DNA from: a virus
Taxonomy: Duplodnaviria > Caudoviricetes
IMG/VR virus record: IMGVR_UViG_3300029169_000003
Span: 1 to 56,856 of that record
Length of the DNA: 56,856 nucleotides
Strand: one strand, 5' to 3'
Position numbers and translations under genes: made by a program. The notes under the pieces are model-generated. The model was given only the letters and a program-made list of their open reading frames with translations, did not search any database and was not told where the DNA came from. This document shows positions 1,094 to 56,839 of this stretch, piece by piece. How positions within the stretch are numbered: position 1 is the first letter of the stretch; the number at the start of each line of letters is the position of its first letter.

Positions 1094-1441
1094 ATGACAC
1101 CCGTATACCTATCATTTACTCGAGATTCAAGAACAAGGAAATTAGAATCCCTTTCATATCCGGAACGAATATTCCACCCTCACAAGAAGTTAGCCTCTAA
1201 GGTAGAAGAGAACGTGCCCTATATATCCACTCGTTATTTTAGAGTTAGAGATTCTGAAGTCTGGATAGCCAACAAATTGATCTTGGCTAAGGAACGCCCA
1301 CTAGCAGTAGCTGCGGTAGTGAAGATGGGCTTAATCCTCATATCCAGAAGTGACCTACCTATCAGGGAATTCTTCCTGAAAGACATTACCATAAACAATA
1401 TATTCAATTGGACCTGGAGGATATACGGAAGTTGTTGTTAG
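1094..1441 (+). CDS. Hypothetical protein, probably cut by a chimeric junction near 1400-1430
   Basis: ATG ORF with the composition of the 92-1015 segment; its C-terminus overlaps the switch in dinucleotide usage. Confidence 0.4.
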   Translation: MTPVYLSFTRDSRTRKLESLSYPERIFHPHKKLASKVEENVPYISTRYFRVRDSEVWIANKLILAKERPLAVAAVVKMGLILISRSDLPIREFFLKDITINNIFNWTWRIYGSCC

Positions 1442-1634
1442 TGATGATGGTGTGTTTGTCGATGAACCCGTTATATATGAAGGAGATGGAATGGTTAACG
1501 ATGGGATGTTGAGTGTATCCAAACCTTCGTTAGATTTATTAGGTCCCGTGTGTACAACATGTGGAGGGTTAACCCAACGAGCCGGAACGTGTTTTACCTG
1601 TACGTCGTGTGGTGATAGTACAGGATGTGGTTGA
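1395..1634 (+). CDS. C-terminal zinc-ribbon fragment resembling the class II (B12) ribonucleotide reductase NrdJ tail; 5' part absent
   Basis: CTTCG-GLTQRAGTCFTCTSCG-DSTGCG at the C-terminus matches the CxxCG...RxGxCxxCxxCGxSxGC end of NrdJ; frame open only from 1395, no RNR core upstream. Confidence 0.65.
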   Translation, partial: TIYSIGPGGYTEVVVSDDGVFVDEPVIYEGDGMVNDGMLSVSKPSLDLLGPVCTTCGGLTQRAGTCFTCTSCGDSTGCG

Positions 1635-1684
1635 AATGAAGTGGGGGACCTTCCCCTACAGTTCATGTAATAAAATTATCCATA

Positions 1685-1930
1685 ATGAAAACAAAAACAT
1701 ATTTACGGTTACAAATATTTAGTAACGGTCATGAAATATACGGTATCAAGTACGAAGAGGATTCCGTTAAAAAGTTCAATCCTGAGTTGTCTCGGACTTT
1801 TGGGGATAATAATTATAGTAGTATAACTTTAAAACGTGGTGGAGACCATGAAACGACTACTACGACCGTTATCGATGGGTATAATTTAACAGTCATTAAA
1901 ACAGTTGTAGAAACAAATGAAGACTTATAA
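1685..1930 (+). CDS. Hypothetical protein (tandem small-ORF family)
   Basis: ATG ORF overlapping the next gene; ends ...VIDGYNLTVI. Confidence 0.7.
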   Translation: MKTKTYLRLQIFSNGHEIYGIKYEEDSVKKFNPELSRTFGDNNYSSITLKRGGDHETTTTTVIDGYNLTVIKTVVETNEDL

Positions 1931-2141
1931 ATACAAATTAGTAGTAAGTGATAGGGATACAATTGTCCTTATTTACGACGACGTTCCGGTAATACATGAA
2001 AAAGAACTCCCAGAAATAACTTATAATGACGATTCAACGTGCGCCGTTGTAAAAACACATGAAATGGTTTACGGGACAACGAAGGTTGTTGAGATTTCTG
2101 GAAATGTTTTATATCACACTTTAATTGAGTATAAAAAATGA
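1917..2141 (+). CDS. Hypothetical protein (tandem small-ORF family)
   Basis: Coupled ORF; ends ...VEISGNVLYH. Confidence 0.7.
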   Translation: MKTYKYKLVVSDRDTIVLIYDDVPVIHEKELPEITYNDDSTCAVVKTHEMVYGTTKVVEISGNVLYHTLIEYKK

Positions 2142-2365
2142 CATATTTTAATATTACAGTATATGATAATTCGAGAATAATTTTTACAGAAGAATTCGAA
2201 GATTTGGATGATGATGATTATTCTATTGTTTTCCAAACGAAGAAATCGTTTTTTGGTGGCATCAAACAAATAGATTTAACTGGAGTTAACGTTGACGGAC
2301 CTTTTACTATAACGGTTGGTGGAAATAATTTAACTTATTTGGTTGATACGGATGAATCAAAATAA
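2138..2365 (+). CDS. Hypothetical protein (tandem small-ORF family)
   Basis: ATGA overlap with previous stop; ends ...ITVGGNNLTYL. Confidence 0.7.
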   Translation: MTYFNITVYDNSRIIFTEEFEDLDDDDYSIVFQTKKSFFGGIKQIDLTGVNVDGPFTITVGGNNLTYLVDTDESK

Positions 2366-2540
2366 ACCAAAACCGAAACCAGGAGAAGGAAAGGTTGTGG
2401 CCGGAGTGATATACGTTGACAACGGAATTAGTTGTAATTGTACGGGTGCCCAAAACTGTAACACATGTCGGGAGAATGTCGTTGGTGTGTGGTATGAACG
2501 AAAGAATAAGAAGATTTTTGAGAAACTAAATGATAAATAA
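2352..2540 (+). CDS. Small Cys-rich hypothetical protein
   Basis: CNC...CNTC cluster; coupled to its neighbours. Confidence 0.55.
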   Translation: MNQNKPKPKPGEGKVVAGVIYVDNGISCNCTGAQNCNTCRENVVGVWYERKNKKIFEKLNDK

Positions 2541-2871
2541 CCATGATGTCATAGTAAACGGGAGCGACAATCAAGAAGAAACGTACCATGGTATAAGTTT
2601 TTTATGTTTACAATATATAGAAAACGGCGAACAAAACGTAAACGTTATCGTCAAATATCATGAGAAATTTCTATGTCAATTAAAACAGGTATTAATACAA
2701 GATTTCTATGAATGGAGTATTGAGGAACATACAGATCGAGGTTATGTTCAAATACAACATGGAAAGATTTTTTTATTTAATTCGTTAAATTATGTTGACA
2801 ATGGTAATATAACTATTACCGACGTTGATGGGTTTGAAAATGTAAACGTAATTAAAATACCGATACTATGA
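2530..2871 (+). CDS. Hypothetical protein
   Basis: Coupled ORF in the operon. Confidence 0.65.
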   Translation: MINNHDVIVNGSDNQEETYHGISFLCLQYIENGEQNVNVIVKYHEKFLCQLKQVLIQDFYEWSIEEHTDRGYVQIQHGKIFLFNSLNYVDNGNITITDVDGFENVNVIKIPIL

Positions 2872-3377
2872 AGTTGTTGGGAATAAATTTACTTATCGTC
2901 GGAAATGATCGTAATATATTTGGGTTATATGTGAATGGATCGTTACACACTGTATGTAATGGTCAAACACATAAACATAAAATCTTAAGTAAAGTACTTA
3001 CTAAAAATCCGGTATATATACCGAACTTCGATTATGTTTATATTAAAGATTTGTATCAGTTCCCAAACAAGCAAAATGATTTAATTAGTATTTATAAACA
3101 AGTACCAATATATCTTCCACCAGACATCGGGTTAGATATGAAAGAACGACCACATGTACGGTGGTTTGTTTGGTTTAACAGTTCTGGGAAGGTTGTAGTT
3201 GTAGGTGATAGAAATAATTATGATAATACACCTTTTGATGAAGTTGAAGAAAAAATAAAAGAAGTAGGTTTAGTAAACGGTGGTGTTCGTTGTACAATGT
3301 ATAACGAAAACAAATACCCAAACATCTCTTCTCTCCATGGTAAGCTGAAATTTGAGGAAACTTATGTGGTGTTATAA
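2868..3377 (+). CDS. Hypothetical protein (169 aa, no alanine)
   Basis: ATGA overlap upstream, TAATG overlap downstream. Confidence 0.7.
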   Translation: MKLLGINLLIVGNDRNIFGLYVNGSLHTVCNGQTHKHKILSKVLTKNPVYIPNFDYVYIKDLYQFPNKQNDLISIYKQVPIYLPPDIGLDMKERPHVRWFVWFNSSGKVVVVGDRNNYDNTPFDEVEEKIKEVGLVNGGVRCTMYNENKYPNISSLHGKLKFEETYVVL

Positions 3378-3898
3378 TGAAATATGTGTTGGGATTAGAT
3401 CCAGGGACGAGAGCGATGGGGATTTCGTTAGTCAAACAAACTGGGAAGGGAAAGAAAAGTAAGATAGAATTGATGGGTGTTACCACGGTTAAACGTGTGG
3501 ACCATACGGAGGAAGGAGTTAACGTTGGAATGAAAGAAGTCGACAGTTTTTTGCGAACACACAAAGTCAAGTGGGGAGACGTTGAGATGATTATAGAATG
3601 TCCAGCACCACGTTGGTATGGTCGTAACAATTCGGTTGCACTCATCAAAATATTCTGGCAAGTTTTATATATTTGTAAATACTTCCAACGTAAAGTAGGG
3701 AACATAGTGTTGATTGATTCATTTGATTGGAATAGGAAAAGAATGCCGGGAGATAATGGAACGTTTTATTATAGTCAGTATGGTGATAAAGAAAAGAAGG
3801 AACGTTTCTTAAAACTGTTTCCGGGTATTAGTAAGGGAAACACGGACACACGGGATGCAACATTAATGTGTATTAAACATATCGAAGGGTACGAATAA
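3377..3898 (+). CDS. RuvC-like Holliday junction resolvase (RNase H fold)
   Basis: VLGLDPGT (first Asp), MIIECP (Glu), C-terminal DTRDA acidic pair. Confidence 0.8.
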   Translation: MKYVLGLDPGTRAMGISLVKQTGKGKKSKIELMGVTTVKRVDHTEEGVNVGMKEVDSFLRTHKVKWGDVEMIIECPAPRWYGRNNSVALIKIFWQVLYICKYFQRKVGNIVLIDSFDWNRKRMPGDNGTFYYSQYGDKEKKERFLKLFPGISKGNTDTRDATLMCIKHIEGYE

Positions 3899-4392
3899 TG
3901 GATAGACGAAGTTTTATATGGAAGACGGCGCAATCAACGGTAATTTTAGGAGTTGCCCCGTTCGTAGGACGGTTGGTAGACAGTACTGTTGAACTAACAC
4001 CCATCGAAATGTTTGTGAAGGGTTTGAAAGAACATGGTGAAGATTATTTAGTATTTGATCCGGATGAAAACGATTTGTTAACGGGTAAGATAGTAATGGT
4101 TGATCTGGGGTTGTTGGAAGAAACTCCTGTCTTGCGAACTCGTTTTGAATTTGTAGGGCCAGATCGAGTTATGTTTTGTAGGAATTCTGACACGTATAAG
4201 ATTGACGTTATAGGTAAATCCAATATAGATGGTATACGTATGGACGACGGGATGATTGCATTGAAAAAAATCAAACTAGATATCATGGATTACTACTTAC
4301 CAGAACGTCGAGATAATGATTACGACGTACCGGAGGGTGCACCATTATATCCGTCAACGTGGGACGATAAACTTAAACGAACAGTTTTGTAA
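3898..4392 (+). CDS. Hypothetical protein with twin-arginine-like N-terminus
   Basis: MDRRSFIWKTAQSTVILGVAP fits the RRxF-phi Tat motif plus a short hydrophobic stretch. Confidence 0.6.
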   Translation: MDRRSFIWKTAQSTVILGVAPFVGRLVDSTVELTPIEMFVKGLKEHGEDYLVFDPDENDLLTGKIVMVDLGLLEETPVLRTRFEFVGPDRVMFCRNSDTYKIDVIGKSNIDGIRMDDGMIALKKIKLDIMDYYLPERRDNDYDVPEGAPLYPSTWDDKLKRTVL

Positions 4393-4441
4393 GTGTAAAA
4401 AAGTTACTTGTAATAATAAATAAAAAAAAGAGATATAAAAG

Positions 4442-4849
4442 ATGGTTAACAAAGTTATTTTAGTTGGACGGTTGGGACAGGATCCAGAGTTGCGTTATAC
4501 TGGTGATGGTACCGCAGTCTGTAATTTTAGTATCGCAACCTCTTCCAAGTACAAAGATAGTAATGGAGAGTGGGTAGAGAACACAGAATGGAACAAGACT
4601 GTTGCTTGGAGCAAGTTGGCAGAAATCTGTGGAGAGTATTTGAAGAAAGGTTCACTCGTTTACGTTGAGGGAAGTCTTCAGACTCGAAAGTACGATGACA
4701 AAGATGGAGTAACGCGATACTCCACTGAAATCAAGATTAAAGAAATGAAAATGTTGGGTAGTAGAGATGGTAGTGATGGTAGTACTACACCAAAACCAAC
4801 ACAAACGAAGTCGGATGATTTCGGCCCCGACGATGATCTGCCATTCTAA
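4442..4849 (+). CDS. ssb: Single-stranded DNA-binding protein, bacterial type
   Basis: [40 protein letters not shown]-terminal DDDLPF. Confidence 0.97.
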
Positions 4850-4870
4850 AACATGATAGTATATTGTTAT

Positions 4871-4907
4871 AATCCCGGTGGTAATAAACAACCACCGGGA
4901 TTTGTTG
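4871..4907 (+). terminator. Hairpin terminator after ssb
   Basis: 12-bp perfect stem AATCCCGGTGGT / ACCACCGGGATT followed by T-rich sequence. Confidence 0.7.
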
Positions 4908-4949
4908 TATAAAATTTGTTTTATAAAATTTGATTTTGTATATTGCGAT

Positions 4950-5246
4950 ATGAATGAAAACAAAATAAAAGTATTAACGACGTTGTTAAAACGTATTATT
5001 GTCCAATACAAAGATCTAAGTAGTATTGCGGATCCGTTGTATGACCTGGATTACGACGGGTGTGTCGTAGAAACTAAAAAAGTTTTGGATGAAAGTTGGG
5101 TTGACGACAACGAAAAGATCGTTTATGGTTGTGTAAAGTTGGTGAAGTTTCTACAAAAACAACAAAATAATATTGATTTAATAACACCCGACAACATTGA
5201 TAATAAGTTTTGGGACTTATTAAACGACATTCCGGAGATAAAATGA
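4950..5246 (+). CDS. Hypothetical protein
   Basis: ATG at 4950; stop overlaps the next start (ATGA). Confidence 0.65.
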   Translation: MNENKIKVLTTLLKRIIVQYKDLSSIADPLYDLDYDGCVVETKKVLDESWVDDNEKIVYGCVKLVKFLQKQQNNIDLITPDNIDNKFWDLLNDIPEIK

Positions 5247-5839
5247 AAATCATAGGAGTTACTGGTAAAAAATTCGCAGGGAAAGACACCATTTGTGATT
5301 ACTTAGAAATTTTATTAAAACGAAAAGGCGTTGAAGTAATTAGAGAAAGTTTCGCCAACGGTTTCAAACCTCACATCCAAAACATGTTTGGATTTACGGA
5401 CCAACAAATGACCGATCCGTTGTTAAAGGAAACAGTGGATGAACGTTGGGGTTTATCTCCTCGTTACATATTACAAACTTTTGGTACAGAGTATGGACGA
5501 ACGTTTCTAAAACCCGATGTTTGGATTAAATCACTACAACTCCGATTAAATGATGGTATCAACAATCTATACAATCCGAGAAATGTTTGGGTGTTGATAT
5601 CGGATTTACGGTTTGACAATGAAGGGGAATATATTGTCGAACGAAGTGGTAATATAATCGAAGTAAAAAGAAATACAGATTATAATGGATACAATAACCA
5701 TCAAAGTGAAAACGGGATTAGTGATAAGTATTCTAGGAACGTAATTAATAATACGGGAACGATAGAAAAATTAAAACAACAAATAGATAACGTGTTTGAA
5801 GAAATTTACATTGAATGGGAGGAAAGAAATGATTATTAA
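5243..5839 (+). CDS. Deoxynucleoside monophosphate kinase (T4 gp1/T5 dNMP kinase type)
   Basis: IIGVTGKKFAGKDT P-loop, SFA, SPRYILQTFGTEYGR, ISDLRFDNE, HQSE. Confidence 0.9.
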   Translation: MKIIGVTGKKFAGKDTICDYLEILLKRKGVEVIRESFANGFKPHIQNMFGFTDQQMTDPLLKETVDERWGLSPRYILQTFGTEYGRTFLKPDVWIKSLQLRLNDGINNLYNPRNVWVLISDLRFDNEGEYIVERSGNIIEVKRNTDYNGYNNHQSENGISDKYSRNVINNTGTIEKLKQQIDNVFEEIYIEWEERNDY

Positions 5840-7748
5840 AACTTTAAAATTATTAATATTGGTTTTGGTAATATTATTTACGTTGGGAAGTAATGTATAT
5901 TCTCAAACAATAACGTTACCGGATAGTGTATTAACACAACAAACTGGTATGGAGTTTAGTATCGATACGGAGTTTAAACAAATAAACTCGACATATTTTG
6001 AATATGTGTATAACCCCACAATTATTCGTATTGATGATATAATACCAACACAGAAGTCATGGAAAGTAGTGTTTGAAGATAATGTGGGTGTAGTGAAAAT
6101 TGCGGCGTTGTCGGATAGTGTAATCGCCCACAACGGTCCATTGTTTGAAATGACTGTAACACCATTACGTGTTGGGAATACCGAATTGAAGTTGGTTGAT
6201 GTTAGTTGGGTTGATTGTCGAGATTTAGTAACGGTAATACCTATTCCGAAACCAGAAGGATATGAAACATTTGTAGAAACTTTTAATGGGGATTTGTATT
6301 GGATTGATCCGGTTTATGGTGTCGATAACAACACTTGTCGTGAATTTGATACACCTTGTTTGACGGACGCACCATTCCAAGATAAACTCCAACCAGGAGA
6401 TGGTGTAATATTGCGTGGCGGTATTCATCGTTTCACTTTAAATCCCGTTGTCTCTGGTTTACCTGATAATTATATAACATACACAAAGTTTCCGGGAGAA
6501 GACGTTGTTATAACCGGGACTGATATATGGGGGGACGATTGGAGCGAAGTAGGGAATAATGTTTGGGTGACGCCATACAATGTTTCCCTACCTCAACATC
6601 CGGCGATAGCTAAACCGCAGAAACAGTGGAGACCCGAAATTGTTGTGGTCGACAACCAAGTTTTAACAACTGTTTATGATGTCAATAACATTAAACCGTA
6701 CTCGTTTTATGTGGAGGGACCATCAACGAATCCTACATATTTATACATAAACTTGGACGGGATCGATCCAAACAATGTTAACGTTGAAGTGGGGAAACGT
6801 CCACACGTATTACTTAGTAATATCGATTACATACATGTAAATAAACTGGTGTTCCAACATGGTGCAAACTCGTTCGGGAAAACAGGATGTGTGGATATAA
6901 GTGGAGACGGTTGGTTGGTTACTTATTCATTAATCGTCGAGTGTAACACCACGGGAATTAAATATACCGGTGATGGTCATGAGTTTGTTGGAGTATCTTC
7001 AAACTATAATGGAACTGTGGGGTGGAATAGTGAAAATTCCACAAACGTTAAGATAATCAACAGTAGTGCAATAGGCAACAACACTAAAGGTTTTCTCCCA
7101 AACTGGCACGCGGGGGGGATGAAAATAACACACGGAACAGACTACACGTTGATATCGAATTTTGAGTCGAAAGACAACAATGGTCCCGGTATATGGTTCG
7201 ACATCCCAACAGGTATTGGAAATGTTATAGAAAATTCATTTATATCGAATAACCAATTATCGGGAATATTTTTGGAACACGGTACGATAAACAGTATTGT
7301 TAGGGATAATGTTGTGTATGGTACGAGGAAGTACAACGGAACTGGTAGTGGGATAAGGTTACAGGCAGCCTCCTCGAACTTGTTGGAAAACAATACAGTG
7401 TATGGCAATAAAGGGTATGGGGTTTTTGAAAAATTTAAAGACAAACGATCTCAACCAGGATATAATGTATTTGTTCGGAACTTTGTGGGACACAATGTCG
7501 ACGGTCAGGTACGAATTGATCGAGACCCCAACGAAACGATAGTTGACTTTTTCCAAAATAATGTGTATGTTGTTGGTGGTAATACGTTTAAAATTGAAAA
7601 CGATTATCAGGGAAATAGTATAACTTCATGGTTATCGCGACAACTACACTCGTATCCTTACGACGAACTGGTTACGGATGGGGTCGAAGACCCGACATCT
7701 GAAGATGGATGGAGAGGATTAATGGATAATGTTGGGGTTAGAAAATGA
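5829..7748 (+). CDS. Secreted protein: Sec signal, cohesin-like domain, right-handed parallel beta-helix (pectin-lyase-like, polysaccharide-acting candidate)
   Basis: Signal ending NVYS-Q; YVYNPTIIRI...VKIAALSDSVIAHNGPLFEMTVTPLRVGNTEL; LQPGDGVILRGG; AGGMK, NNGPGIWFD and GIFLE beta-helix coils. Confidence 0.8.
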   Translation: MIIKTLKLLILVLVILFTLGSNVYSQTITLPDSVLTQQTGMEFSIDTEFKQINSTYFEYVYNPTIIRIDDIIPTQKSWKVVFEDNVGVVKIAALSDSVIAHNGPLFEMTVTPLRVGNTELKLVDVSWVDCRDLVTVIPIPKPEGYETFVETFNGDLYWIDPVYGVDNNTCREFDTPCLTDAPFQDKLQPGDGVILRGGIHRFTLNPVVSGLPDNYITYTKFPGEDVVITGTDIWGDDWSEVGNNVWVTPYNVSLPQHPAIAKPQKQWRPEIVVVDNQVLTTVYDVNNIKPYSFYVEGPSTNPTYLYINLDGIDPNNVNVEVGKRPHVLLSNIDYIHVNKLVFQHGANSFGKTGCVDISGDGWLVTYSLIVECNTTGIKYTGDGHEFVGVSSNYNGTVGWNSENSTNVKIINSSAIGNNTKGFLPNWHAGGMKITHGTDYTLISNFESKDNNGPGIWFDIPTGIGNVIENSFISNNQLSGIFLEHGTINSIVRDNVVYGTRKYNGTGSGIRLQAASSNLLENNTVYGNKGYGVFEKFKDKRSQPGYNVFVRNFVGHNVDGQVRIDRDPNETIVDFFQNNVYVVGGNTFKIENDYQGNSITSWLSRQLHSYPYDELVTDGVEDPTSEDGWRGLMDNVGVRK

Positions 7749-7803
7749 GTGTAGTTATAATTAACTGAAGTCGATAAAAAAAAATACGTAAAGGAGGTAA
7801 ATA

Positions 7804-7956
7804 ATGAATATTGATTTTGGCGTTTTGGAGGGGGAAATATTAACACGGGTTGATAACGGTGTTGTTGAAACCAACAAACATATTGTATCCCTCCGTTGGT
7901 ACGGAACCTCTAACGGGTATTATAGTGAAAAAGTTGATTTTATGGAAATACTGTAA
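7804..7956 (+). CDS. 50-aa ORF missed by the track; resembles a shortened member of a common phage family ending IRWYGxSNGYYSExV
   Basis: AAGGAGGT RBS; MNIDFGVLEGEILTRVDNGVVETNKHIVSLRWYGTSNGYYSEKVDFMEIL; stop abuts the next ATG. Confidence 0.6.
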   Translation: MNIDFGVLEGEILTRVDNGVVETNKHIVSLRWYGTSNGYYSEKVDFMEIL

Positions 7957-8166
7957 ATGGAGCACGAATACGATTTACCCCAAACTATCGACTTAGGTGG
8001 ATTTAGATATAACTGTTTATCAATCAAACCGTGGGGAAACGACTGGTCCTTCTTGTTGGTATTTAAAACACCGATTAGGTTTATATACGATAATAAAAAA
8101 ATCAAGAATAATAAACATTTAAAGGAACTTGTTAACCAATATAAAGAAATGTATGACAACCATTAA
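7957..8166 (+). CDS. Hypothetical protein
   Basis: ATG directly after the previous stop. Confidence 0.55.
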   Translation: MEHEYDLPQTIDLGGFRYNCLSIKPWGNDWSFLLVFKTPIRFIYDNKKIKNNKHLKELVNQYKEMYDNH

Positions 8167-8249
8167 AGTCCCAACGTTGAGCGTTAAAGCGAAAGACCTT
8201 TCAACACATTCCAAAATATTGTTAGAGCACGATTCATGTTTGACATATA

Positions 8250-8603
8250 GTGGAGAACATGGAGCATACTGGGGAGAAGATCATCAAGGTTATACCGAAT
8301 AAAAACTTTTTGTTAAAAATAACAATCGACAAAGGAAAAGACATTCCTTCCGAATATTTACCAGAAGTTGAACACCAAGACTTACTAACATGTATGTTGT
8401 TGGGTTATATGGAATTGTTGAATTACTTGTACCCACCAGTCATCAAGTTTGAAACGGCAGGAGACGTTAAAACATATTTAGAAATCGTTATTGAAGGCAT
8501 GAATGACGAGTTAGATAAAGAAGGTTATAATAATTCTTACGTTGACGGATACACCCAGTGTTTACAAGAATTAACAGAAGTCCTAAAAAATGTGGAAATT
8601 TAA
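8250..8603 (+). CDS. Hypothetical protein (start uncertain)
   Basis: Open frame overlapping the next gene. Confidence 0.5.
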   Translation: MENMEHTGEKIIKVIPNKNFLLKITIDKGKDIPSEYLPEVEHQDLLTCMLLGYMELLNYLYPPVIKFETAGDVKTYLEIVIEGMNDELDKEGYNNSYVDGYTQCLQELTEVLKNVEI

Positions 8604-8934: not shown

Positions 8935-8938
8935 TAAC

Positions 8939-10195: not shown

Positions 10196-10207
10196 TTGTA
10201 AATAATA

Positions 10208-11302: not shown

Positions 11303-11304
11303 TA

Positions 11305-48717: not shown

Positions 48718-49463
48718 ACTACCACCACTGATTTAACAATTTTCGTAGTGTTACCTATAACTCTTAAAATATACATACCTGGACTCAACGTATCAACATT
48801 GAAGTGTAATCGATTCGTGTTGACCAATACTCCGTTGTATAAATTTAATACTTCCCGTCCCAAATTATCGTACAGTATAATCGTTATTACTTCCGGATTC
48901 GGTATTTGAATATCCAAATTAACAATATTATTTAATACGGGATTTGGGAAAATTGTTACACTACCGGATTTAGTGTATACTGGTTTTTCGTTTGGGATCG
49001 GAGACACTATCGTTCCCGACTTGGTAACTATTGTCGGTTGCGATATCTCGTTAAATTTAAACGTCCCTACAACATCAAAATCGCTTAAAATGTTTTTAGT
49101 ACGTAACGTTATGTTCCCCATAGTGCTATCACCTGACAGTGTTGACAACATCTTTAACGGATTTACACCGGCAGTCGCAAAGTTCAAAACCCCGCTATCA
49201 ACACCATTTTCATTCGTCAAAACTAAATGTCCCGTGTCGAAAAAATGGGAGGCGGCATTAAACTCGACAAAGTCAAACAACAAACTATCCCAAACTATAC
49301 TCCCCTCAACCGCCCGTATTTCCTCGTTGTATATTCCATTATAATCCACATAATACGTAAACGTTGTATCGGAATTCGTCTCTACCTGTCCATGGACATT
49401 GTTTATTGTAACAAAAAACAACAACATAAATGAAATAACAACATACCAGTATTTTATTAACAT
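48714..49463 (-). CDS. Secreted protein: Sec signal, cohesin-like domain, type IX secretion (Por) C-terminal sorting domain
   Basis: Signal ending VHG-Q; IVWDSLLFDF...GVLNFATAGVNPL...FKFNE; CTD IFPNPV...LYDNLGREV...LSPGMYILRV...KSVVVV. Confidence 0.85.
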   Translation of the reverse strand: MLIKYWYVVISFMLLFFVTINNVHGQVETNSDTTFTYYVDYNGIYNEEIRAVEGSIVWDSLLFDFVEFNAASHFFDTGHLVLTNENGVDSGVLNFATAGVNPLKMLSTLSGDSTMGNITLRTKNILSDFDVVGTFKFNEISQPTIVTKSGTIVSPIPNEKPVYTKSGSVTIFPNPVLNNIVNLDIQIPNPEVITIILYDNLGREVLNLYNGVLVNTNRLHFNVDTLSPGMYILRVIGNTTKIVKSVVVV

Positions 49464-49930
49464 AACAACTCTCCTATATTTTTTAAATTGTGTCCATATT
49501 CAAATCGTCGTTCCATCTTCAGTTTATCGTGGAACTTCGGTACTTTCAAATTCTCTTTTTCCTCATACCCAACAACAGTATACGGATTTGTTTTACCAGT
49601 TACAAGTACGTAGATGTCGGCCATGTCTTCCTCCTTCACGTGTGGGGGTATCAACAACGAACCATTTTTGTACTTCGTGTGTTTGACATCAACCGTCCGT
49701 CCATCCTCCAAAACAAAATCGTATTTATCAACACGGTCCACATCGTTGTTGGTGTCGTGACGTGTTAACACATAATATACGACTTCTCCCAATATCCCGT
49801 AATAGTGACTTTCCTTATTCGTATACCCACTTACTTTCCTTTCCCTACACCGTTTACTGTTCTCTACTCGTTTGTTGGATAACTCATCAACCAAACGGAT
49901 GAACCTATCACTCAAAAATACATCCACCAT
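49457..49930 (-). CDS. PD-(D/E)XK restriction-endonuclease-like protein
   Basis: GILGEVV (motif I), YDF (II), VDVKHT (III), DIYVLV. Confidence 0.75.
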   Translation of the reverse strand: MVDVFLSDRFIRLVDELSNKRVENSKRCRERKVSGYTNKESHYYGILGEVVYYVLTRHDTNNDVDRVDKYDFVLEDGRTVDVKHTKYKNGSLLIPPHVKEEDMADIYVLVTGKTNPYTVVGYEEKENLKVPKFHDKLKMERRFEYGHNLKNIGELLC

Positions 49931-50157
49931 TACTGACCATCCTCGAACATGATACAACGGTAGAAGGATGGATCTCCTTTAATTTTATATGTTTTAAAAA
50001 TTTTAGTAAAATCCTTCCCCTTTAACTCGTAAAATTTATCCACTAATGTTTCGGGAATGAAGTACCAAACATGATTCCCCGACTCCTTATCGACTTTCCT
50101 AAAATATCCACTATTCATGATCGCCTTACAATTGAACTGTTGATATGAAATAAACAT
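49930..50157 (-). CDS. Hypothetical protein (start uncertain)
   Basis: Fills the gap in the operon. Confidence 0.45.
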   Translation of the reverse strand: MFISYQQFNCKAIMNSGYFRKVDKESGNHVWYFIPETLVDKFYELKGKDFTKIFKTYKIKGDPSFYRCIMFEDGQ

Positions 50158-50324
50158 TCTTCCAGTTTAGAAAACGCCATACTTTTCTCCCTACTTTCGG
50201 GACACACTTCGTTAATTAGGTATCCCAACTCTTTCACTTTACTTCTCATCAACTCAAACAATTCAACATGTTCAGATGTTGGCGAATGATAACTAAAACG
50301 TGTTTCTATTTCTTCTTTACTCAT
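50115..50324 (-). CDS. Acb2/Tad1-hairpin-like protein (candidate immune-signal sponge)
   Basis: RFSYHSP...MRSKVKELGYLINEVCPESREKSMAFSKLEECLFHINSSIVR helical hairpin. Confidence 0.6.
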   Translation of the reverse strand: MSKEEIETRFSYHSPTSEHVELFELMRSKVKELGYLINEVCPESREKSMAFSKLEECLFHINSSIVRRS

Positions 50325-50592
50325 ATTCATCATATCCTTCCTCGTCTTCAACCCATTCAGTTTCGTCCCAGATGTCCCCATCTCCATCTATAACGGGCGA
50401 CAAGTAATCAACAAATTCGCAATTTTCGTAATCATACAACGGGTCAGTGTTGAACGTACCACCGTCTATTTGACTTTGAGTCCAACTGTGGTATTCACCT
50501 TCCCCGCTCTCACTCAACCATAACACAAAGTTTCGACGTTGTTGTTTATCATCGAAATTAATTTTTAGCGTCGTCACTTTCTTCTTCTCCAT
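50317..50592 (-). CDS. Acidic hypothetical protein
   Basis: FVLWLSESGEGEYHSW motif. Confidence 0.6.
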   Translation of the reverse strand: MEKKKVTTLKINFDDKQQRRNFVLWLSESGEGEYHSWTQSQIDGGTFNTDPLYDYENCEFVDYLSPVIDGDGDIWDETEWVEDEEGYDEYE

Positions 50593-50779
50593 TTAATAAA
50601 TTATACAGTTCCATATATTCATGTTCAATCCCGTCTCCTTCATAATATATCCCGTGTTTTGCACTCATCACAAACACCGATTGGTATGTCGGATCTTCAA
50701 ACATTGTTGTTAAACAATCTAACAAATTCATACTACACAATAATAATTTATCTCCATCAATTTCCATATTATACTCCAT
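50558..50779 (-). CDS. Hypothetical protein
   Basis: First ORF downstream of the tRNA-like element. Confidence 0.6.
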   Translation of the reverse strand: MEYNMEIDGDKLLLCSMNLLDCLTTMFEDPTYQSVFVMSAKHGIYYEGDGIEHEYMELYNLLNGEEESDDAKN

Positions 50780-50831
50780 AATTAGTTCGTGACCACATCG
50801 TTATACCACATACATAACACTGGGTCACAAG

Positions 50832-50904
50832 TTCCGACCGTGGGATTCGAAGTCACATCCTCTTGATTCGTAGTCAAGTGTTCTTCCATTTGAACTTCGT
50901 CGAA
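50832..50904 (-). tRNA. Degenerate tRNA-Arg(ACG), probable pseudo-tRNA
   Basis: Minus strand: TTCGACG-AA-GTTC..GG..GAAC-A-CTTGA-CT ACG AA-TCAAG-AGGAT-GTGAC TTCGAAT CCCAC-GGTCGGA-A; perfect D and anticodon arms, two T-stem mismatches, one acceptor mismatch, A at position 8. Confidence 0.7.
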
Positions 50905-51035
50905 ATATATACCGGTTAAAATAATAATACCGTATTTCCAACACCATGTTCCATGTTCACACGAACTTGATAATTGTGAACATACTGTTATTTATGTTGT
51001 ATAAATATTTTATCACTTAAAAATATACGGATATT

Positions 51036-53252
51036 ATGAAACTTAAACAAACATTATTTACATTATTATTATTGTTAATCCCATTATTAACGGTTCATTC
51101 ACAAACAGTAACATATCCCGTGGAAGTAGTTGGTGCAACACTAACTACCGATACACGTACCGTCACTGTTCCTGACGTAACCGGTATCACCCGTCTATGG
51201 ATGAAGGTACATAACTTGTCGTACGACGGTAAGATGTCCGTACGGGTCAATTCTGGGACATGGTTTACACCAGAAAACGCCAACACCGAAGTTGCCGATC
51301 CTGAATATAGATATGGTGGCATCGGTGGTGCGTGGGATGTGATTCGGATCGAAGTCCCCCTCTCAGGTTTCACAGATGGAAGTAACACTATCGAATGGAG
51401 ATTTAATGGCACGGATGGATTGTCGTCTGGTTTTCGGGTATTGGACTGGAAGTTCATGACCAGCGATAGTACAGAAGTACCGTTTACTGAAACGATGGTA
51501 GAAGATGATCCGGACTTGTGGACACCTTTTACTACTCATGTCGACAGTTTGAGCGAGGGGGCAACATTATTCACCACCGGAACGATCACAACACCGTTGG
51601 GAAATCCGTCGTCTGTGAGTTGTGCCGACTGTCATAGTAATGGAGGGGAAGATTTAAAGTACTTTAATATGAGTAATAATTCTATCGTCCAACGGTCCAT
51701 ACAACACGGGTTAACGGTGAGTCAGGGGAGGAATATTGCATCATGGATCCGGAACTTGGATTTACCAAATCCTGGACGTGTATGGAATCCCCCGTTCCAA
51801 CCAGGACCAGGACAAGATTTGGTAACACCCGAAGACTGGAGTGCCGGTACTGGGTTAACGTATGTTTTGGATACTGACCAACAAATGAAAGATTACTTAT
51901 TTCCAGACGGAATCAACGACAACGGGTGGATCGATACCGATAGTTTACTTAACATGAGGGAACTCCCGACGAATATGATGATGCCCGACTGGTTTAATTG
52001 GTTGCCACGAGTTCACCCGATAGACTCATGGGGTACAACGTTTACCAACAGTCCTGCATGGGACGAATACATTAATGAGTGGCCGAGTTTAATATCACTT
52101 GGATCTTCTGTATACCTCGCCAAATCTCGTATACCTCGTCAGTTTGAGGGGATGAATTCTGCGGTTGATGACTTTAGGGAGGATACACCACCCGAATCTG
52201 GTTGGACCGATAAAGATCAAGCCGATGCAAATTTATCCCTACAGTTGTGGAACATTACTAAACATTGGGAAATAATGAGACAGTTGGAGTTGGAAGGATT
52301 AGTGTCCACATTTTACCCCACGTCTAAAGAAAAATATTCATGGTTTGGACAGGATAGAGGAATATTCAATACAGCTCCACACATCTCAGGCGTCGGGGGA
52401 CAAAGTAATTCGTACGACGGGTTTATTGAGGCCAAATATCGTTCGGCCCAGTGGTATCACCTCCAAATCATCGTTAACAATGGGAATTGCGATCCATTAA
52501 CCATTAAACCTGTAGATTGGAAATACACTTATGGTCATACGACCGACATCACTAATAATGGTGGAGGACCTGTCGGTTCACTACTTATCTCAGAGTTTGT
52601 GAAGGGTATGGAAGTTATGGATTGCGCCAATAGTGTCGGAGAACGAGGTTGGTATGCACGCCACGTCAACCCATACTGGTGGAGACAACTCAACGACGAA
52701 GGACTCACACAAACTATCCATTTCGACGGATGGAGCGATGTTGATTTAAACAACCTACGAACTACGATGTTCAGGAGTTTTATGGAAGCTAACGTAAGTT
52801 ATCCGGTGTCGTCATGGGAACGGGGTGACGACAATCACATGTTAGAGGAAGACGATTACATAACATCTCCGGACAGTTCATGGGGGAGTAGTATTCGTTT
52901 TGACTATGCCTCGTCTCTCCATACGTTATTACAGTTGAGTGATGTGAGAGGAGTACCCACTACTGCAATCGATTCGCTAGCGCGTTGGGCCGAGGAAGCA
53001 TGGCCCCTAAACAACTTCGAAGAGTTTTTTATTACAACAACGTACGGAGATGTGAGCGGGAATGGAAGTGTGACGTCTTTTGATGCTTCCCAAATACTCC
53101 AATACAATTCTGGATTAATCACTTTAACGGGAGAACAGTTGATTGCCGCAGATGTGAGTGGTAATGGGAGTGTATCGTCGTATGATGCCTCTTTAGTCCT
53201 ACAGTTTATTGCTGAATTAATCACATGTTTTCCGGTGGAAAATGGTTGTTAA
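51036..53252 (+). CDS. Secreted protein with a c-type heme motif (CADCH) and a C-terminal dockerin
   Basis: Signal ending VHS-Q; CADCH at 51621-51635; duplicated Ca-loop GDVSGNGSVTSFDASQILQY...ADVSGNGSVSSYDASLVLQF at ~53043-53240. Confidence 0.88.
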   Translation: MKLKQTLFTLLLLLIPLLTVHSQTVTYPVEVVGATLTTDTRTVTVPDVTGITRLWMKVHNLSYDGKMSVRVNSGTWFTPENANTEVADPEYRYGGIGGAWDVIRIEVPLSGFTDGSNTIEWRFNGTDGLSSGFRVLDWKFMTSDSTEVPFTETMVEDDPDLWTPFTTHVDSLSEGATLFTTGTITTPLGNPSSVSCADCHSNGGEDLKYFNMSNNSIVQRSIQHGLTVSQGRNIASWIRNLDLPNPGRVWNPPFQPGPGQDLVTPEDWSAGTGLTYVLDTDQQMKDYLFPDGINDNGWIDTDSLLNMRELPTNMMMPDWFNWLPRVHPIDSWGTTFTNSPAWDEYINEWPSLISLGSSVYLAKSRIPRQFEGMNSAVDDFREDTPPESGWTDKDQADANLSLQLWNITKHWEIMRQLELEGLVSTFYPTSKEKYSWFGQDRGIFNTAPHISGVGGQSNSYDGFIEAKYRSAQWYHLQIIVNNGNCDPLTIKPVDWKYTYGHTTDITNNGGGPVGSLLISEFVKGMEVMDCANSVGERGWYARHVNPYWWRQLNDEGLTQTIHFDGWSDVDLNNLRTTMFRSFMEANVSYPVSSWERGDDNHMLEEDDYITSPDSSWGSSIRFDYASSLHTLLQLSDVRGVPTTAIDSLARWAEEAWPLNNFEEFFITTTYGDVSGNGSVTSFDASQILQYNSGLITLTGEQLIAADVSGNGSVSSYDASLVLQFIAELITCFPVENGC

Positions 53253-53255
53253 AAC

Positions 53256-53298
53256 ATAAAATTGGGAATGGAAGTTCGTCAACCATTCCCAATTTTAT
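53256..53298. terminator. Bidirectional terminator
   Basis: 16-bp perfect inverted repeat ATAAAATTGGGAATGG / CCATTCCCAATTTTAT directly after the stop. Confidence 0.85.
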
Positions 53299-53485
53299 TA
53301 TAACATGGACATTTATAACTCGGAACAAAGAGTGGTAGTAATACGTACAAGAAGGTAACTTCTTTTAGTTATCCTTACCCAGTGTGTCGCGATGAATTTA
53401 AAAAAACAGTGTTTACGGTATCAAAAACGCAGGTGTTAATTCAAAACCAGTATTTTACCATTCGTCGTCCTAAATACTATACACA

Positions 53486-53791
53486 TTACAACGGCATCCA
53501 ACGTAAATTATTTTCATTTTTTAAATCTTTTTTTGTTAACTTATACACCGTTAATATATCATCAACCCAGTCTCCATTTCTAAACATCAACAACTCGTCG
53601 TCATCATCTATTTCCATTGTTTTCACTCCTTCCCATTCAACGTATGTAATATGGTGTTTATACCCAATAAACAAATTACGGTTGTATAAATGAGGAACGC
53701 TTAACCTGTTTCTGCTTAACCAATTAACAACATGTATCAATTCCAATCGTTCGACAACCATTCGGGCCACATCTTCCCCCGTATTACCCAT
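53486..53791 (-). CDS. Hypothetical protein
   Basis: GGAGG RBS; coupled. Confidence 0.6.
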   Translation of the reverse strand: MGNTGEDVARMVVERLELIHVVNWLSRNRLSVPHLYNRNLFIGYKHHITYVEWEGVKTMEIDDDDELLMFRNGDWVDDILTVYKLTKKDLKNENNLRWMPL

Positions 53792-54008
53792 CGTATTCCT
53801 CCAGTATGCACTGTAACGAATTCACGTGTACCAACACTACGTCTCCCGTCTGTGTGGTGATTTTAACGTTGTTGTTCGTTGTGTTTGTACTCACGGTCCA
53901 AAATACTTCTTCATCCACCTCTTTGTTATTTGTTTTAGTTCGAAGTACAGGTATTGTTATATTTACAATTTTGTTTTTCACACACGGTTTTTCAATATGG
54001 TTACTCAT
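53784..54008 (-). CDS. Hypothetical protein
   Basis: GGGGG RBS before ATG at 54008. Confidence 0.55.
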   Translation of the reverse strand: MSNHIEKPCVKNKIVNITIPVLRTKTNNKEVDEEVFWTVSTNTTNNNVKITTQTGDVVLVHVNSLQCILEEYDG

Positions 54009-54057
54009 GTTACGACCCCCGATTTTTTTTAATAAACATCTAATTAATGTTATTCCT

Positions 54058-54585
54058 TTATTCCCTACCATCCATTTCAAAACTTTTCACTGTTTTCATC
54101 AACTCGTGATATCTGGTGGCGACATCCAAATCCGTAAACACTATATTATCTACCCAACCCATCTCTGGTTTGATGTAAGTGTAACGATGGGTAGGGTGGT
54201 CACTATCTATCCCTTCTGGTTTATCTTGAGGATTTACCATCCAACTAAATTCCCGTTTGTTATATATGTAATATTTTTGTCGAAATACTGGTAAAAACAA
54301 AACAGAGGAAACGCCAACTTTAACACACTTCACTTCGTTTACAAATACAATATCTATTCCCCATTCACCGTTTTTACCGTAAAATAGTTTTTTGTCCGTA
54401 TTATACACCACTACTGGTTCGTCAAACAAAAAAGTAATATCGTCGTAGTCTGAAGTTAGGAAGTCTTCATTGACCGTGGTTAAGTTAAACAGTGCCGCCT
54501 CTTCCACGTCTACCGTATACCCGTAACCGTGTTCCAAGTAGTAGTCTTTTTCTCCACTCTTAATCTTAAATGTTACTTCTTTCAT
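54058..54585 (-). CDS. Hypothetical protein (right-end paralog array)
   Basis: VVYNTDKKLFYGKNGEWG module. Confidence 0.65.
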   Translation of the reverse strand: MKEVTFKIKSGEKDYYLEHGYGYTVDVEEAALFNLTTVNEDFLTSDYDDITFLFDEPVVVYNTDKKLFYGKNGEWGIDIVFVNEVKCVKVGVSSVLFLPVFRQKYYIYNKREFSWMVNPQDKPEGIDSDHPTHRYTYIKPEMGWVDNIVFTDLDVATRYHELMKTVKSFEMDGRE

Positions 54586-54866
54586 TATATTGAATCTCCG
54601 TTTAAAAAAACATAATCGTCTATATTGCCAATCAACTCAAACTCCGTATACTTATACGGATTCATTCCCCAGGAACCATCGTTTTGGTAAAATTGTGCCC
54701 GACATTTACTAAAGATATATGATGGTTGTTCGAAATGAAGATGTATATCTCTTTCTGGTAAATCTTCATATGGTAAATCCGAAACGGTGAATGTTTGATA
54801 ACCTCTTACGCCCCATCCACCTTCTCCGTTATACCATAAATCGTGGTACTTAATTTTAAATAACAT
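54585..54866 (-). CDS. Hypothetical protein (right-end array)
   Basis: FKIKYHDLWYNGEGGWG; TAATG coupling. Confidence 0.6.
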   Translation of the reverse strand: MLFKIKYHDLWYNGEGGWGVRGYQTFTVSDLPYEDLPERDIHLHFEQPSYIFSKCRAQFYQNDGSWGMNPYKYTEFELIGNIDDYVFLNGDSI

Positions 54867-54867
54867 A

Positions 54868-55377
54868 TTATCTACTTTCTCCGTTTTTAGTCCAACGTGG
54901 AATTTGTTTAATTTCGTCGAATACTTTATTTAAACGTGTTTGTAAAATTCCATATAACTCGTTTTTTCCTATAAAAATATCTCTATCTTCTTCTGTGTAA
55001 AATACTAAACAGTCGGGGTTTGACTCAGGCGACGTCGCCGTAAATTCCTTTTTAGTTTTTGGGTCGTACACATAATATGATATAGGTTGAACAACATCTT
55101 CAACATTTTTTATAACGGCAATATCATAGTGGTTTAACAATACCAACGGTATGTGGTCAAATATAACATTTCTACTTCCCCATTCATACTCTCCGTCCCA
55201 TCCCCAGGACGTCAAAAACCTAGAATTATTAACGTCATACACCGAGAACGAAAATCCTTCACTTTCAACGATACTATCTTTATCGTCGATGGGTGGTAGT
55301 GGACCGTTGCTTAAACTTTTCAACGTGTTGTCCTCTAACCAAACGACACCGTCTTTATCTTCTACATTAAACTTCAT
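54868..55377 (-). CDS. Hypothetical protein (right-end paralog array)
   Basis: FSVYDVNNSRFLT...EWG and YYVYD...VFYTEEDR modules. Confidence 0.65.
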   Translation of the reverse strand: MKFNVEDKDGVVWLEDNTLKSLSNGPLPPIDDKDSIVESEGFSFSVYDVNNSRFLTSWGWDGEYEWGSRNVIFDHIPLVLLNHYDIAVIKNVEDVVQPISYYVYDPKTKKEFTATSPESNPDCLVFYTEEDRDIFIGKNELYGILQTRLNKVFDEIKQIPRWTKNGESR

Positions 55378-55609
55378 AATAATACTCTTCTTTATCTATG
55401 ATTGGGATATCTTCTAACTCATGATTTAATAATTCTATTTCCTCTAGTTTGTTTTTATACAACAACCTGTTTTCCTCGGTATCGAAAAATACATATTCAT
55501 AATCACAAAAACTTTGTATATTATCTTCCGTTACTTCAAACGTTGATATATCGGTACAATCTATTCCGTAAAATATTTTATCACCCGTGGACATTTTTAT
55601 ACACCTCAT
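55367..55609 (-). CDS. Hypothetical protein (right-end paralog array)
   Basis: FYGID..TFEV...FFDTEENR module. Confidence 0.6.
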   Translation of the reverse strand: MRCIKMSTGDKIFYGIDCTDISTFEVTEDNIQSFCDYEYVFFDTEENRLLYKNKLEEIELLNHELEDIPIIDKEEYYYEV

Positions 55610-55814
55610 CTTTATCTATAAATTTTACTTGACCTTCTAACTCATACAACGTTTCCCTCATGTTCTCAATCAATTCATATTGTCTACGAGTTGTGGGAGA
55701 ATCAAAAACCATATAACATTCATGTTTCCGAATTGAATCTATATCATGTTGTTTTATTTCAAAGGTGGTACCATCGTGAATATTATATACATATAACATC
55801 TTATCTTCGTTCAT
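55581..55814 (-). CDS. Hypothetical protein (right-end paralog array)
   Basis: LYVYN..TFEI...VFDSPTTR module. Confidence 0.6.
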   Translation of the reverse strand: MNEDKMLYVYNIHDGTTFEIKQHDIDSIRKHECYMVFDSPTTRRQYELIENMRETLYELEGQVKFIDKDEVYKNVHG

Positions 55815-55883
55815 GGTCTATCTGGTGTTTATACAACTGGTTGAAAATATCTTCTTTATTTACCGTTATCGTACCGTACATCA

Positions 55884-56372
55884 TTATTCTACCATCCGTA
55901 TTTTATACAAATCTTCCTCAAATGACTTTCTGCTTTCTTCCATGTCTGAAATAATGTTAATATAGTTCACTCTATCACCTTCACTATAAAAACAGAGAAC
56001 ACCGTCTTGTTTTTTGTACTTGGTTGATTCTATCTCATACAAATTACTAACATTCCGATCCCAACAGTAGTATGTTGTATTTGGAATTGGTAGTAACGTA
56101 ACATTGTTGTTCAGCACAATATCGAATATGACTGATTCAAATTTGAATGGAGTATCTACCCATTGGTTTAAAGTGTTCGTCAAAAACAAACCGGTATTGT
56201 TATTATAAACAAAAAATCTTTGACCATTGATATTTTTTATAGTCCATGGTAGATCACGTTGGATAGTTCCACCTACTTTGTTAATTTTCCTTTTCGCCCA
56301 CCATCGTTGTAACTCGTCCAACGTTCCGGTGTCCAACGATACTCCTTCAAAATTTAGTAAATCAAATAACAT
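55884..56372 (-). CDS. Hypothetical protein (right-end paralog array)
   Basis: MLFD; FFVYNNNTGLFLT; YYCWD...CFYSEGDR. Confidence 0.65.
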   Translation of the reverse strand: MLFDLLNFEGVSLDTGTLDELQRWWAKRKINKVGGTIQRDLPWTIKNINGQRFFVYNNNTGLFLTNTLNQWVDTPFKFESVIFDIVLNNNVTLLPIPNTTYYCWDRNVSNLYEIESTKYKKQDGVLCFYSEGDRVNYINIISDMEESRKSFEEDLYKIRMVE

Positions 56373-56386
56373 AATTTACACCTTTT

Positions 56387-56698
56387 TTATATTTGTTTAA
56401 CTTCAATATCGTAGTCGACAACAATCTCCAATAACAACTGATCGAATGCTACTGGATACTCACCCCACTCGTCTTCATCCGTTCTCCAATTACAGTATAA
56501 TCCAGTACTTTTGTTTTTTATCACAAACTTTACGTTTTCGACAGGATGAATAATAAACGGGAAACATGAAGTATGTTTATACCTCCACCCCCTCCTATAT
56601 ATTTCTTTACCTTTATCTTTATACTTTTCTTTAATTTGGTCCAACGTTACGTTTTTATCTATAACGCCGTTCCACATACTTCTAACATCAAATAACAT
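56387..56698 (-). CDS. Hypothetical protein (right-end paralog array)
   Basis: MLFD; FVIKNKSTGLYC...EWG. Confidence 0.65.
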   Translation of the reverse strand: MLFDVRSMWNGVIDKNVTLDQIKEKYKDKGKEIYRRGWRYKHTSCFPFIIHPVENVKFVIKNKSTGLYCNWRTDEDEWGEYPVAFDQLLLEIVVDYDIEVKQI

Positions 56699-56839
56699 GA
56701 TTTTAATTATTGTAAGTTTTTGTAAATACAAACGGAATTTTTATAACTTCGTAATAAACCCCGACACCATTCTCGATATCATTATATACCAATTTAAGTT
56801 GTGTCTCGATATAACATATCAGGAATATCACCCCCCAGA

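Follow-up and report, generated by a model that had tools for sequence, protein, structure and literature searches.

Genome-wide GpC depletion and alanine loss in an uncultured tailed phage, a possible footprint of GpC methylation

Why should a phage genome be so poor in the dinucleotide GpC that many of its proteins contain no alanine, all of whose codons are GCN? The question is raised by the IMG/VR record IMGVR_UViG_3300029169_000003, the linear sequence of an uncultured, aquatic tailed phage (Caudoviricetes); the whole record, of 56,856 bases, was analyzed and is referred to here as the window. A preliminary description had reported strong GpC depletion between positions 1430 and 56839 and had offered as explanations long-term cytosine methylation at GpC, or at an RGCY-type site, and the avoidance of a GC-cutting defense. 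The interval was sensible, with the depleted signature beginning at ca. 1444 and an amplification primer occupying 56840 to 56856; positions 1444 to 56839 are therefore treated here as the usable phage DNA.

Size and distribution of the GpC deficit

Within the usable DNA, GpC was found 1017 times, compared with 2081 expected; 200 mononucleotide shuffles gave a mean of 2080 (standard deviation, 37) and never fewer than 1977. The symmetrised odds ratio for the whole window was 0.49 (0.48 to 0.49 across counts), and the ca. 1000 GpC left correspond to one per 54 bp. The strong depletion described earlier is thus real, and the hand counts behind it were exact (0 GpC versus 17 CpG at 1681 to 2040 and 2 versus 10 at 55861 to 56220).

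The deficit was deepest in two blocks of small genes (Table 1), where the GpC odds ratio of 1.5-kb intervals ranged from 0.19 to 0.44 (block 1) and from 0.17 to 0.45 (block 2), with a combined value of 0.32, while the structural block had a value of 0.58. The highest intervals, 22501 to 24000 and 30001 to 31500, reached 0.87 to 0.90; the genes there have 9 to 12.6% alanine, yet the share of C in their NGY codons (third base C or T after G) was 0.12. Of the other dinucleotides, GT and AC had an odds ratio of 1.19 to 1.21, and their joint surplus of +1347 stands against a GC shortfall of −1064. This excess had been set beforehand by the preliminary description as a test of its proposal, and it is present. 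CpG was also in excess (1.23 to 1.26). AG/CT was mildly depleted (0.73 to 0.75), which is ordinary given the range of 0.55 to 1.29 in the comparison sets described below, and is not counted as part of the finding.

Could so unusual a composition have been created by amplification, sequencing, or assembly? The DNA went through primer-tagged random amplification, primers persist at both ends of the record, and its first 1.4 kb are probably chimeric. Against this, contigs assembled independently from two sequencing runs (X1 and X2) have identical letters, with no differences listed over positions 1 to 20000, open reading frames (ORFs) are intact up to 3243 amino acids (aa), and conserved alanines are kept in the capsid protein and the single-stranded-DNA-binding protein (SSB). 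Furthermore, a conversion of bases would be expected to leave two strand-specific versions, not one coherent contig. We give an artefact almost no credence.

The depletion acts on DNA and is uniform across the genome

The deficit acts at the DNA level, and coding is not its cause. By codon position, the GpC odds ratio was 0.57 (positions 1-2), 0.43 (2-3), and 0.32 at the junction between codons (3-1), and in the 4.5 kb of intergenic DNA it was 0.43, so that correcting for codon usage does not remove the depletion. The codon junctions contained 151 GpC, compared with 440 ± 15 (minimum, 399) in 300 synonymous shuffles. Such low values of the target dinucleotide at silent and non-coding sites are a feature of methylation-type depletion. 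Along similar lines, C made up only 0.10 to 0.15 of the third bases of NGY codons, compared with 0.22 to 0.53 in the remaining pyrimidine-ending (NNY) codons, and purine-ending (NNR) codons ended in G in 12% of cases when preceding C versus 38 to 50% when preceding other bases.

This silent-site deficit was the same in all gene classes: the share of C in NGY codons was 0.12 in alanine-rich genes, 0.14 in the other structural genes, and 0.11 in small genes, compared with 0.33 to 0.35 in other pyrimidine-ending codons. Therefore, the pressure is uniform across the genome, and the regional differences reflect the alanine that each protein must keep. Taken together, silent-site C/T proportions of 0.12/0.88 after G and 0.34/0.66 elsewhere imply that the net flux from C to T is ca. 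four-fold higher at GpC.

The two transition products increased to the same extent, with silent-site odds ratios at position 3-1 of 1.48 for GT and 1.46 for AC. A strand-symmetric excess of both products is also a feature of methylation-type depletion, and it bears on two other mutational explanations. The first is a host or phage DNA cytosine deaminase with a 5'-GC preference that edits the genome over generations, as APOBEC enzymes do. Bacterial double-strand DNA deaminases with a GC preference exist, and an enzyme of this kind would result in the identical loss of GC and gain of GT and AC. Phage-borne DNA cytosine deaminases tied to cytosine modification have also been reported in a preprint (10.1101/2024.12.05.627091). 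On the other hand, an equal rise of GT and AC would not be expected from a single-strand enzyme that works on one exposed strand, and no deaminase family was matched by Pfam among 72 ORFs of the window. To our knowledge, there is no precedent for such editing of phages, and we consider this explanation quite unlikely. The second is a context-dependent replication error or repair bias without any base modification, which would agree with an effect that extends over the whole genome, does not vary between silent sites of different genes, and is peculiar to this lineage, the more so as the replication genes are located in the half of the genome that is not on the record. The symmetric transition pattern, however, is what base deamination gives, and we know of no polymerase bias that removes one self-complementary dinucleotide four-fold; to this explanation we assign the same low probability as to the deaminase.

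The depleted unit is the dinucleotide

Each of the 10 NGCN context classes was depleted after correction for the flanking bases (0.13 to 0.56 in the small-gene blocks), and tetranucleotide Markov residuals were 0.68 to 1.41. The depleted unit is, therefore, the dinucleotide GpC and no 4-base site. The RGCY-type unit considered in the preliminary description is not supported: in the small-gene blocks the RGCY words were indeed the lowest (0.13, 0.23, and 0.32), but the YGCR words TGCA (0.28) and CGCG (0.23) were about equal to them, with CGCC/GGCG being the mildest (0.56).

Phages under restriction avoid specific, mostly palindromic words of 4 to 6 bases. Here CTAG follows this pattern: it is nearly absent (50 when both strands are counted, with ratios to expectation of 0.12 at zero order and 0.38 under the Markov model) and is the only word found to be avoided beyond lower-order composition. 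For palindromes with a GC core, in contrast, the dinucleotide deficit alone explains the counts (Markov residuals of 1.26 for AGCT, 1.04 for TGCA, 0.78 for GCGC, and 0.68 for GGCC). As a separate observation, AAGCTT, ACTAGT, and TCTAGA are entirely absent from the window, where 18 would be expected at zero order and 1.5 to 4.4 under the Markov model.

These data bear on selection against GpC itself, whether by density-dependent sensing of GpC or modified GpC in the host, by a host-DNA-degrading nuclease of the phage, or by a cost per site. Selection, too, predicts that depletion is greatest where change is free; the avoidance of CTAG indicates that site avoidance operates in this genome; and a deoxynucleoside monophosphate (dNMP) kinase and a dNMP phosphatase are present, genes of a sort that host-DNA-degrading phages carry. 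However, the GC palindromes are not specially low, non-palindromic contexts are equally depleted, and 1017 remaining sites would hardly offer an escape from a cutting enzyme. The GC-cutting defense of the preliminary description is unlikely for this reason, and a balance of mutation and selection would account for the ca. 1000 GpC that remain better than evasion of a cutter would. The literature searched yielded no bacterial nuclease or sensor specific for 2 bases, and none is known to us. We regard selection as unlikely. One specific form of it would be a density-dependent sensor or effector in the host group that recognizes GpC, whether modified or not, in incoming DNA or its transcripts, with the phage recoded below its threshold even at the expense of having proteins free of alanine. 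Such a system would be the equivalent in prokaryotes of the sensing of CpG by ZAP or TLR9, and we rate it as less probable than either the deaminase or the replication bias.

Distant relatives and sampled genomes of candidate host lineages do not share the signature

In order to put these values into perspective, we used several sets of comparison DNA. A total of 118 IMG/VR loci (107 of at least 4 kb), fetched with a degenerate C5-methyltransferase motif and used as a baseline only, had GpC odds ratios of 0.77 to 1.64 (median, 1.11) and a maximum GT/AC value of 1.12. In 74 bacterial loci of >5 kb, among them the best relatives of the SSB, GpC was 0.72 to 1.26 and GT/AC was 0.69 to 0.97, and in 40 genomes taken at even intervals across the phylum to which the best SSB relative belongs, GpC was 0.92 to 1.53 with a GT/AC maximum of 1.03. 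The range of all comparison DNA (0.72 to 1.64) thus lies above the value of 0.49 in this phage, which is below the minimum of every set, and its GT/AC value of 1.19 to 1.21 is higher than any in these sets, the short metagenome loci excepted. One Caldimicrobium contig of 4.4 kb, from a metagenome-assembled genome (MAG), was itself unusual for a strong CpG depletion (CpG, 0.30; GG/CC, 1.49) that is unrelated to the finding reported here.

Relatives of the phage itself are few and distant. This tailed phage lacks a close cultured relative: a megablast search with 20 kb of the window against the phage collection gave no match, and the large terminase and the capsid protein had top identities of only 23 to 35% to phage records. 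No match was obtained in IMG/VR with the capsid protein alone or with alignment A1, nor with A1 in genome contigs; alignment A3 retrieved a single distant IMG/VR locus (L205), and a scan of JGI metagenomes retrieved only four short, distant loci. These four, with capsid proteins 29 to 44% identical, had GpC values of 0.85 to 1.21 and GT/AC values of 0.92 to 1.11, the latter being 0.95 in the 5.6-kb locus L003 and 1.11 in the 1.9-kb locus L001; in L205, both values were 0.96. Compared with the relatives sampled, the signature is therefore extreme and lineage specific. Closer relatives are known only as proteins (from Logan, ENA, or JGI), with identities of 62 to 72% for the capsid protein and 46 to 55% for an 823-aa protein.

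Phages often resemble their hosts in composition, and a mirrored host signature, or a composition inherited within the clade, would be another explanation. Three weak hints about the host point in the same direction. The protein at 48714 to 49463 has a C-terminal sorting domain of the type IX secretion system (T9SS), which suggests a host in the Bacteroidota or, more broadly, the Fibrobacteres-Chlorobi-Bacteroidetes (FCB) group and the export of this phage protein through the T9SS of that host; by eye, its N-terminus is signal-like. The nearest bacterial relatives of the SSB (53 to 65% identity) belong to Rhodothermales, Rhodothermia, Balneolales, and MAGs labeled “Bacteroidetes,” and the terminase matches those of Salinibacter phages, weakly (28% identity). 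The mild AG/CT depletion (0.73 to 0.75) and the CpG excess (1.23) of the phage fall inside the span seen in Rhodothermales-type loci (AG, 0.79 to 0.97; CG, 1.12 to 1.43), as mimicry of such a host would have it. For GpC, in contrast, none of the 74 bacterial loci fell below 0.72 and none of the 40 phylum genomes fell below 0.92 (their maximum being 1.53), although the actual host is only hinted at, and the distant phage relatives (0.85 to 1.21 and 0.96) are no closer to the window. We consider a mirrored or inherited composition very improbable.

Alanine loss in the proteome

Eighteen of the 74 ORFs of at least 40 aa contain no alanine, compared with an expectation of 0.36 at 6.5% alanine (a typical value) and of 2.0 at the genome’s own 3.8%. 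They include all 11 ORFs named as alanine-free in the preliminary description, the largest of them with 169 aa (2868 to 3377). Alanine amounted to 3.7% of residues overall and to 1.8% in the small-gene blocks. Valine and threonine, also noted earlier as abundant, made up 8.4% and 7.7% in 73 ORFs (8.5% and 7.7% when ORFs shorter than 150 aa were left out), compared with medians of 6.3% and 6.0% in 38 viral loci of similar G+C content. The valine value of 8.5% is above the maximum of these loci (7.6%), while alanine in ORFs of at least 150 aa (4.3%) is below their median (5.9%) and within their range.

The comparison with orthologues pointed to a net loss. In a family of seven orthologues of the 823-aa protein, the window had the least alanine (3.6% versus 4.4 to 7.7%), and a relative had alanine opposite another residue in the window 209 times, compared with 98 times for the reverse. 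Conversely, the capsid protein has 11.2% alanine, the second-highest value among its relatives, and the SSB has kept four of five conserved alanines. The effect seems to be strongest in this lineage and is perhaps graded among its kin.

GpC methylation followed by deamination as a tentative explanation

What kind of process would remove one dinucleotide from silent sites, raise both of its transition products, and deprive tolerant proteins of alanine? A parallel is the depletion of CpG by methylation and deamination in vertebrates and in mollicutes with CpG methyltransferases. There, as here, a self-complementary dinucleotide is lost, its two transition products rise, and the encoded amino acid becomes rarer; the differences are that the dinucleotide here is GpC, with CpG in excess, that the genome is that of a phage, and that the amino acid is alanine and not arginine. 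In animals, a suppressed dinucleotide coupled with the loss of an amino acid is a classic sign of DNA methylation. We found no description of GpC suppression with amino acid loss in a phage in the literature searched.

Enzymes with a fitting specificity are known. According to Burke et al. 2021 (PMC8256090), C5-methyltransferases of phages from metaviromes, encoded beside TET-like dioxygenases, methylate GpC[C/T], with one clade acting on any GpC; a preprint of 2023 (10.1101/2023.12.21.572611) describes thousands of such gene clusters, all in uncultured phages. As far as the two texts were searched, neither mentions GpC depletion, and “depleted” and “underrepresent(ed)” gave 0 hits in both. 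The clusters of C5-methyltransferase, TET (5mYOX), and glycosyltransferase genes resemble the present case in coming from uncultured tailed phages of metaviromes and in having the dinucleotide GpC as their unit. They differ in that no such gene is located in this window, and since YGCR is depleted here as well, an enzyme limited strictly to GpC[C/T] could not account for the whole pattern. M.CviPI, a methyltransferase of a chlorella virus that acts on any GpC (cited in PMC8256090), would fit the depletion in all contexts; it belongs to a eukaryotic algal virus, and the likeness is one of specificity only.

On these grounds, we tentatively favor, at somewhat less than an even chance, GpC-specific cytosine methylation by an enzyme encoded in the missing part of the phage genome, followed by decay through deamination. 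The phage DNA would be under a GpC-specific C-to-T mutation pressure. A phage methyltransferase from the missing ca. half of the genome would methylate the cytosine of GpC at carbon 5, and the mark might be elaborated further to 5-hydroxymethylcytosine (5hmC) or sugars. Deamination would turn 5-methylcytosine into thymine, which, unlike uracil, would escape uracil-DNA glycosylase after injection; this chemistry is established, and its operation in this phage is what we infer. Each event would change GC to GT on one strand, read as AC on the other. At silent sites, the outcome would be the ca. four-fold deficit of GC relative to GT, and at codon positions 1-2, the erosion of GCN alanine codons, partly to valine and threonine, wherever the protein tolerates it, with the major structural proteins keeping their alanine.

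Several results weigh against this explanation. No C5-methyltransferase was detected in the window, neither in a six-frame search with PF00145 (0 matches at E ≤ 1; 12 of 14 control genomes were positive) nor in Pfam scans of the 72 ORFs, as the preliminary description had already noted. A weaker point is that Tet_JBP (PF12851) had no match in the window at E ≤ 1, using a profile for which there was no positive control: it also exceeded the cut-off in 0 of 401 phylum genomes, 0 of the 47 IMG/VR records of lowest GpC, 0 of 5 MAGs, and none of the control genomes. Nucleotide metabolism is represented solely by the dNMP kinase and the HD-domain dNMP phosphatase, both of the ordinary phage kind. 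The two had been considered as evidence of base modification and were rejected as such: the kinase is an ordinary phage enzyme (by tblastn, it matched 1455 phage records, annotated, where an annotation was present, as dNMP kinase), and both genes occur also in phages with unmodified DNA, such as T5. None of the 118 IMG/VR loci with a C5-methyltransferase-like motif was depleted in GpC (minimum, 0.77), so that such a motif alone predicts nothing. The two runs offer no polymorphism at the remaining GpC sites. As their sequences are contigs and, according to the end primers, derive from amplified DNA, any modification would have been erased by amplification. Lastly, the partners of alanine in the 823-aa family were mixed (S, 42; V, 26; G, 25; T, 20; P, 18), with valine and threonine amounting to 22%, and the conservation of alanine relative to BLOSUM62, a crude test, gave ratios slightly below 1 (0.88 and 0.95) and no clear signal. 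The change of alanine to valine or threonine relative to homologs, which had been predicted earlier, is thus borne out weakly: alanine has been lost on balance, with a modest tilt toward these two residues.

The enzyme is absent from the window; this does not imply its absence from the phage, since the record has an estimated completeness (CheckV) of 52%. Capsid-protein relatives are located on contigs of up to 88 to 96 kb, and an 80-kb distant relative has a completeness rating of 66%, from which we estimate that the full genome probably measures ca. 110 to 120 kb. The methylation proposed in the preliminary description, as distinct from the GpC-specific effect on DNA and the GT/AC excess that speak for it, remains plausible in the light of known enzymology and unproven, because the enzyme, if any, lies off the record.

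If GpC methylation or hypermodification is the cause, a protective DNA mark would carry a heavy mutational price that reshapes the proteome (1.8% alanine in accessory genes and 18 proteins without any). The GpC odds ratio would then be a free, sequence-only marker for finding such phages in viromes and for estimating the age of the mark within a lineage. If methylation is not the cause, a previously unknown GpC-directed mutator or defense would be implied.

Ends and gene content of the record

The features of the window are listed in Table 1. The public record is contaminated at both ends with a 17-base word that we take to be a random-amplification primer of the sequence-independent single-primer amplification (SISPA) type.

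Table 1. Positions of the main features of the window.
Feature	Position	Strand	Basis or content
Amplification-primer concatemer (artefact)	1..91	+	19-base unit ×4.8, 100% match; contained 17-mer ×4
Foreign-composition segment, probably chimeric	92..1443	+	Dinucleotide signature and depth
GpC-depleted phage DNA, entire usable part	1444..56839	.	GpC 1017 vs 2081 expected
Most depleted block 1	1444..13500	.	Small, mostly unknown genes; SSB, RuvC-like protein, dNMP kinase, dNMP phosphatase, exonuclease
Alanine-free ORF, largest (169 aa)	2868..3377	+	0 alanine; no Pfam or PHROG match
SSB	4442..4849	+	PF00436, 3.5e-40
dNMP kinase, ordinary T4/T5 type	5210..5839	+	PF21448, 5.9e-14; phrog_139, 2.7e-43
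HD-domain deoxyribonucleoside 5'-monophosphate phosphatase	9121..9666	+	phrog_318, 1.4e-62; PF12917, 7.6e-06
tRNA-Pro (TGG)	10208..10281	+	Within predicted ORF 10135-10677
Structural block, less depleted	13180..44792	-	3243-aa internal virion protein, major capsid protein, portal, large terminase (PHROG/Pfam); SU10-type adaptor somewhere inside
Most depleted block 2	45001..56839	.	Small genes, T9SS C-terminal domain protein, dockerin protein
Secreted protein with T9SS C-terminal sorting domain	48714..49463	-	PF18962, 2e-09; six-frame match, 40.4 bits
Amplification primer (artefact)	56840..56856	-	17-mer once, as reverse complement

The segment that follows the left primer differs from its surroundings in GpC (0.60), CpG (0.69), and AG (1.12), the adjacent DNA having values of 0.19 to 0.45, 1.1 to 1.6, and 0.53 to 0.8, respectively. 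In the independent Logan contigs of the two runs, positions 89 to 1443 form a separate contig of 1355 bases with a depth of 15.5 versus 73.6 (X1) and of ca. 0 to 3 versus 25 (X2), connected to the remainder only via a 30-base overlap. To the left of 1414, both runs continue with a different sequence, and one contig of X2 (record 10) has just 598 of its 6623 bases on the window. Positions 92 to 1413 are thus probably a chimeric join foreign to this phage. The loose end left of 1414 (30 letters) was followed as a lead to the missing half of the genome, but IMG/VR contained no match to it. The segment codes for a metallophosphoesterase (35 to 1015) and a 115-aa ORF.

The start of the ORF predicted at 10135 to 10677 is probably wrong, because a tRNA-Pro gene sits inside it; the Logan contigs of run X1 also break here. 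The 3243-aa ORF of the structural block (13180 to 22911, minus strand) takes up ca. 17% of the record. Its sole match was to the PHROG “internal virion protein,” over residues 2568 to 3039, and a search of 5.8 billion proteins gave no homologue of similar length except itself.

Two further proteins contain domains of the cohesin-dockerin type. A 738-aa protein (51036 to 53252, plus strand) has a signal-like N-terminus by eye, a CXXCH motif, and a C-terminal dockerin (PF00404, 2.2e-10); it was tried as a clue to the host and discarded as uninformative, since scores in the protein atlas were <0.9 and the commonest taxa were Myxococcota and Acidobacteriota. A cohesin domain (PF00963, 5.9e-09) is found in an 1108-aa protein of the structural block (38201 to 41527, minus strand). 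Judging from these domains, the two proteins could dock together, which would represent an unusual decoration of the virion or of the cell surface.

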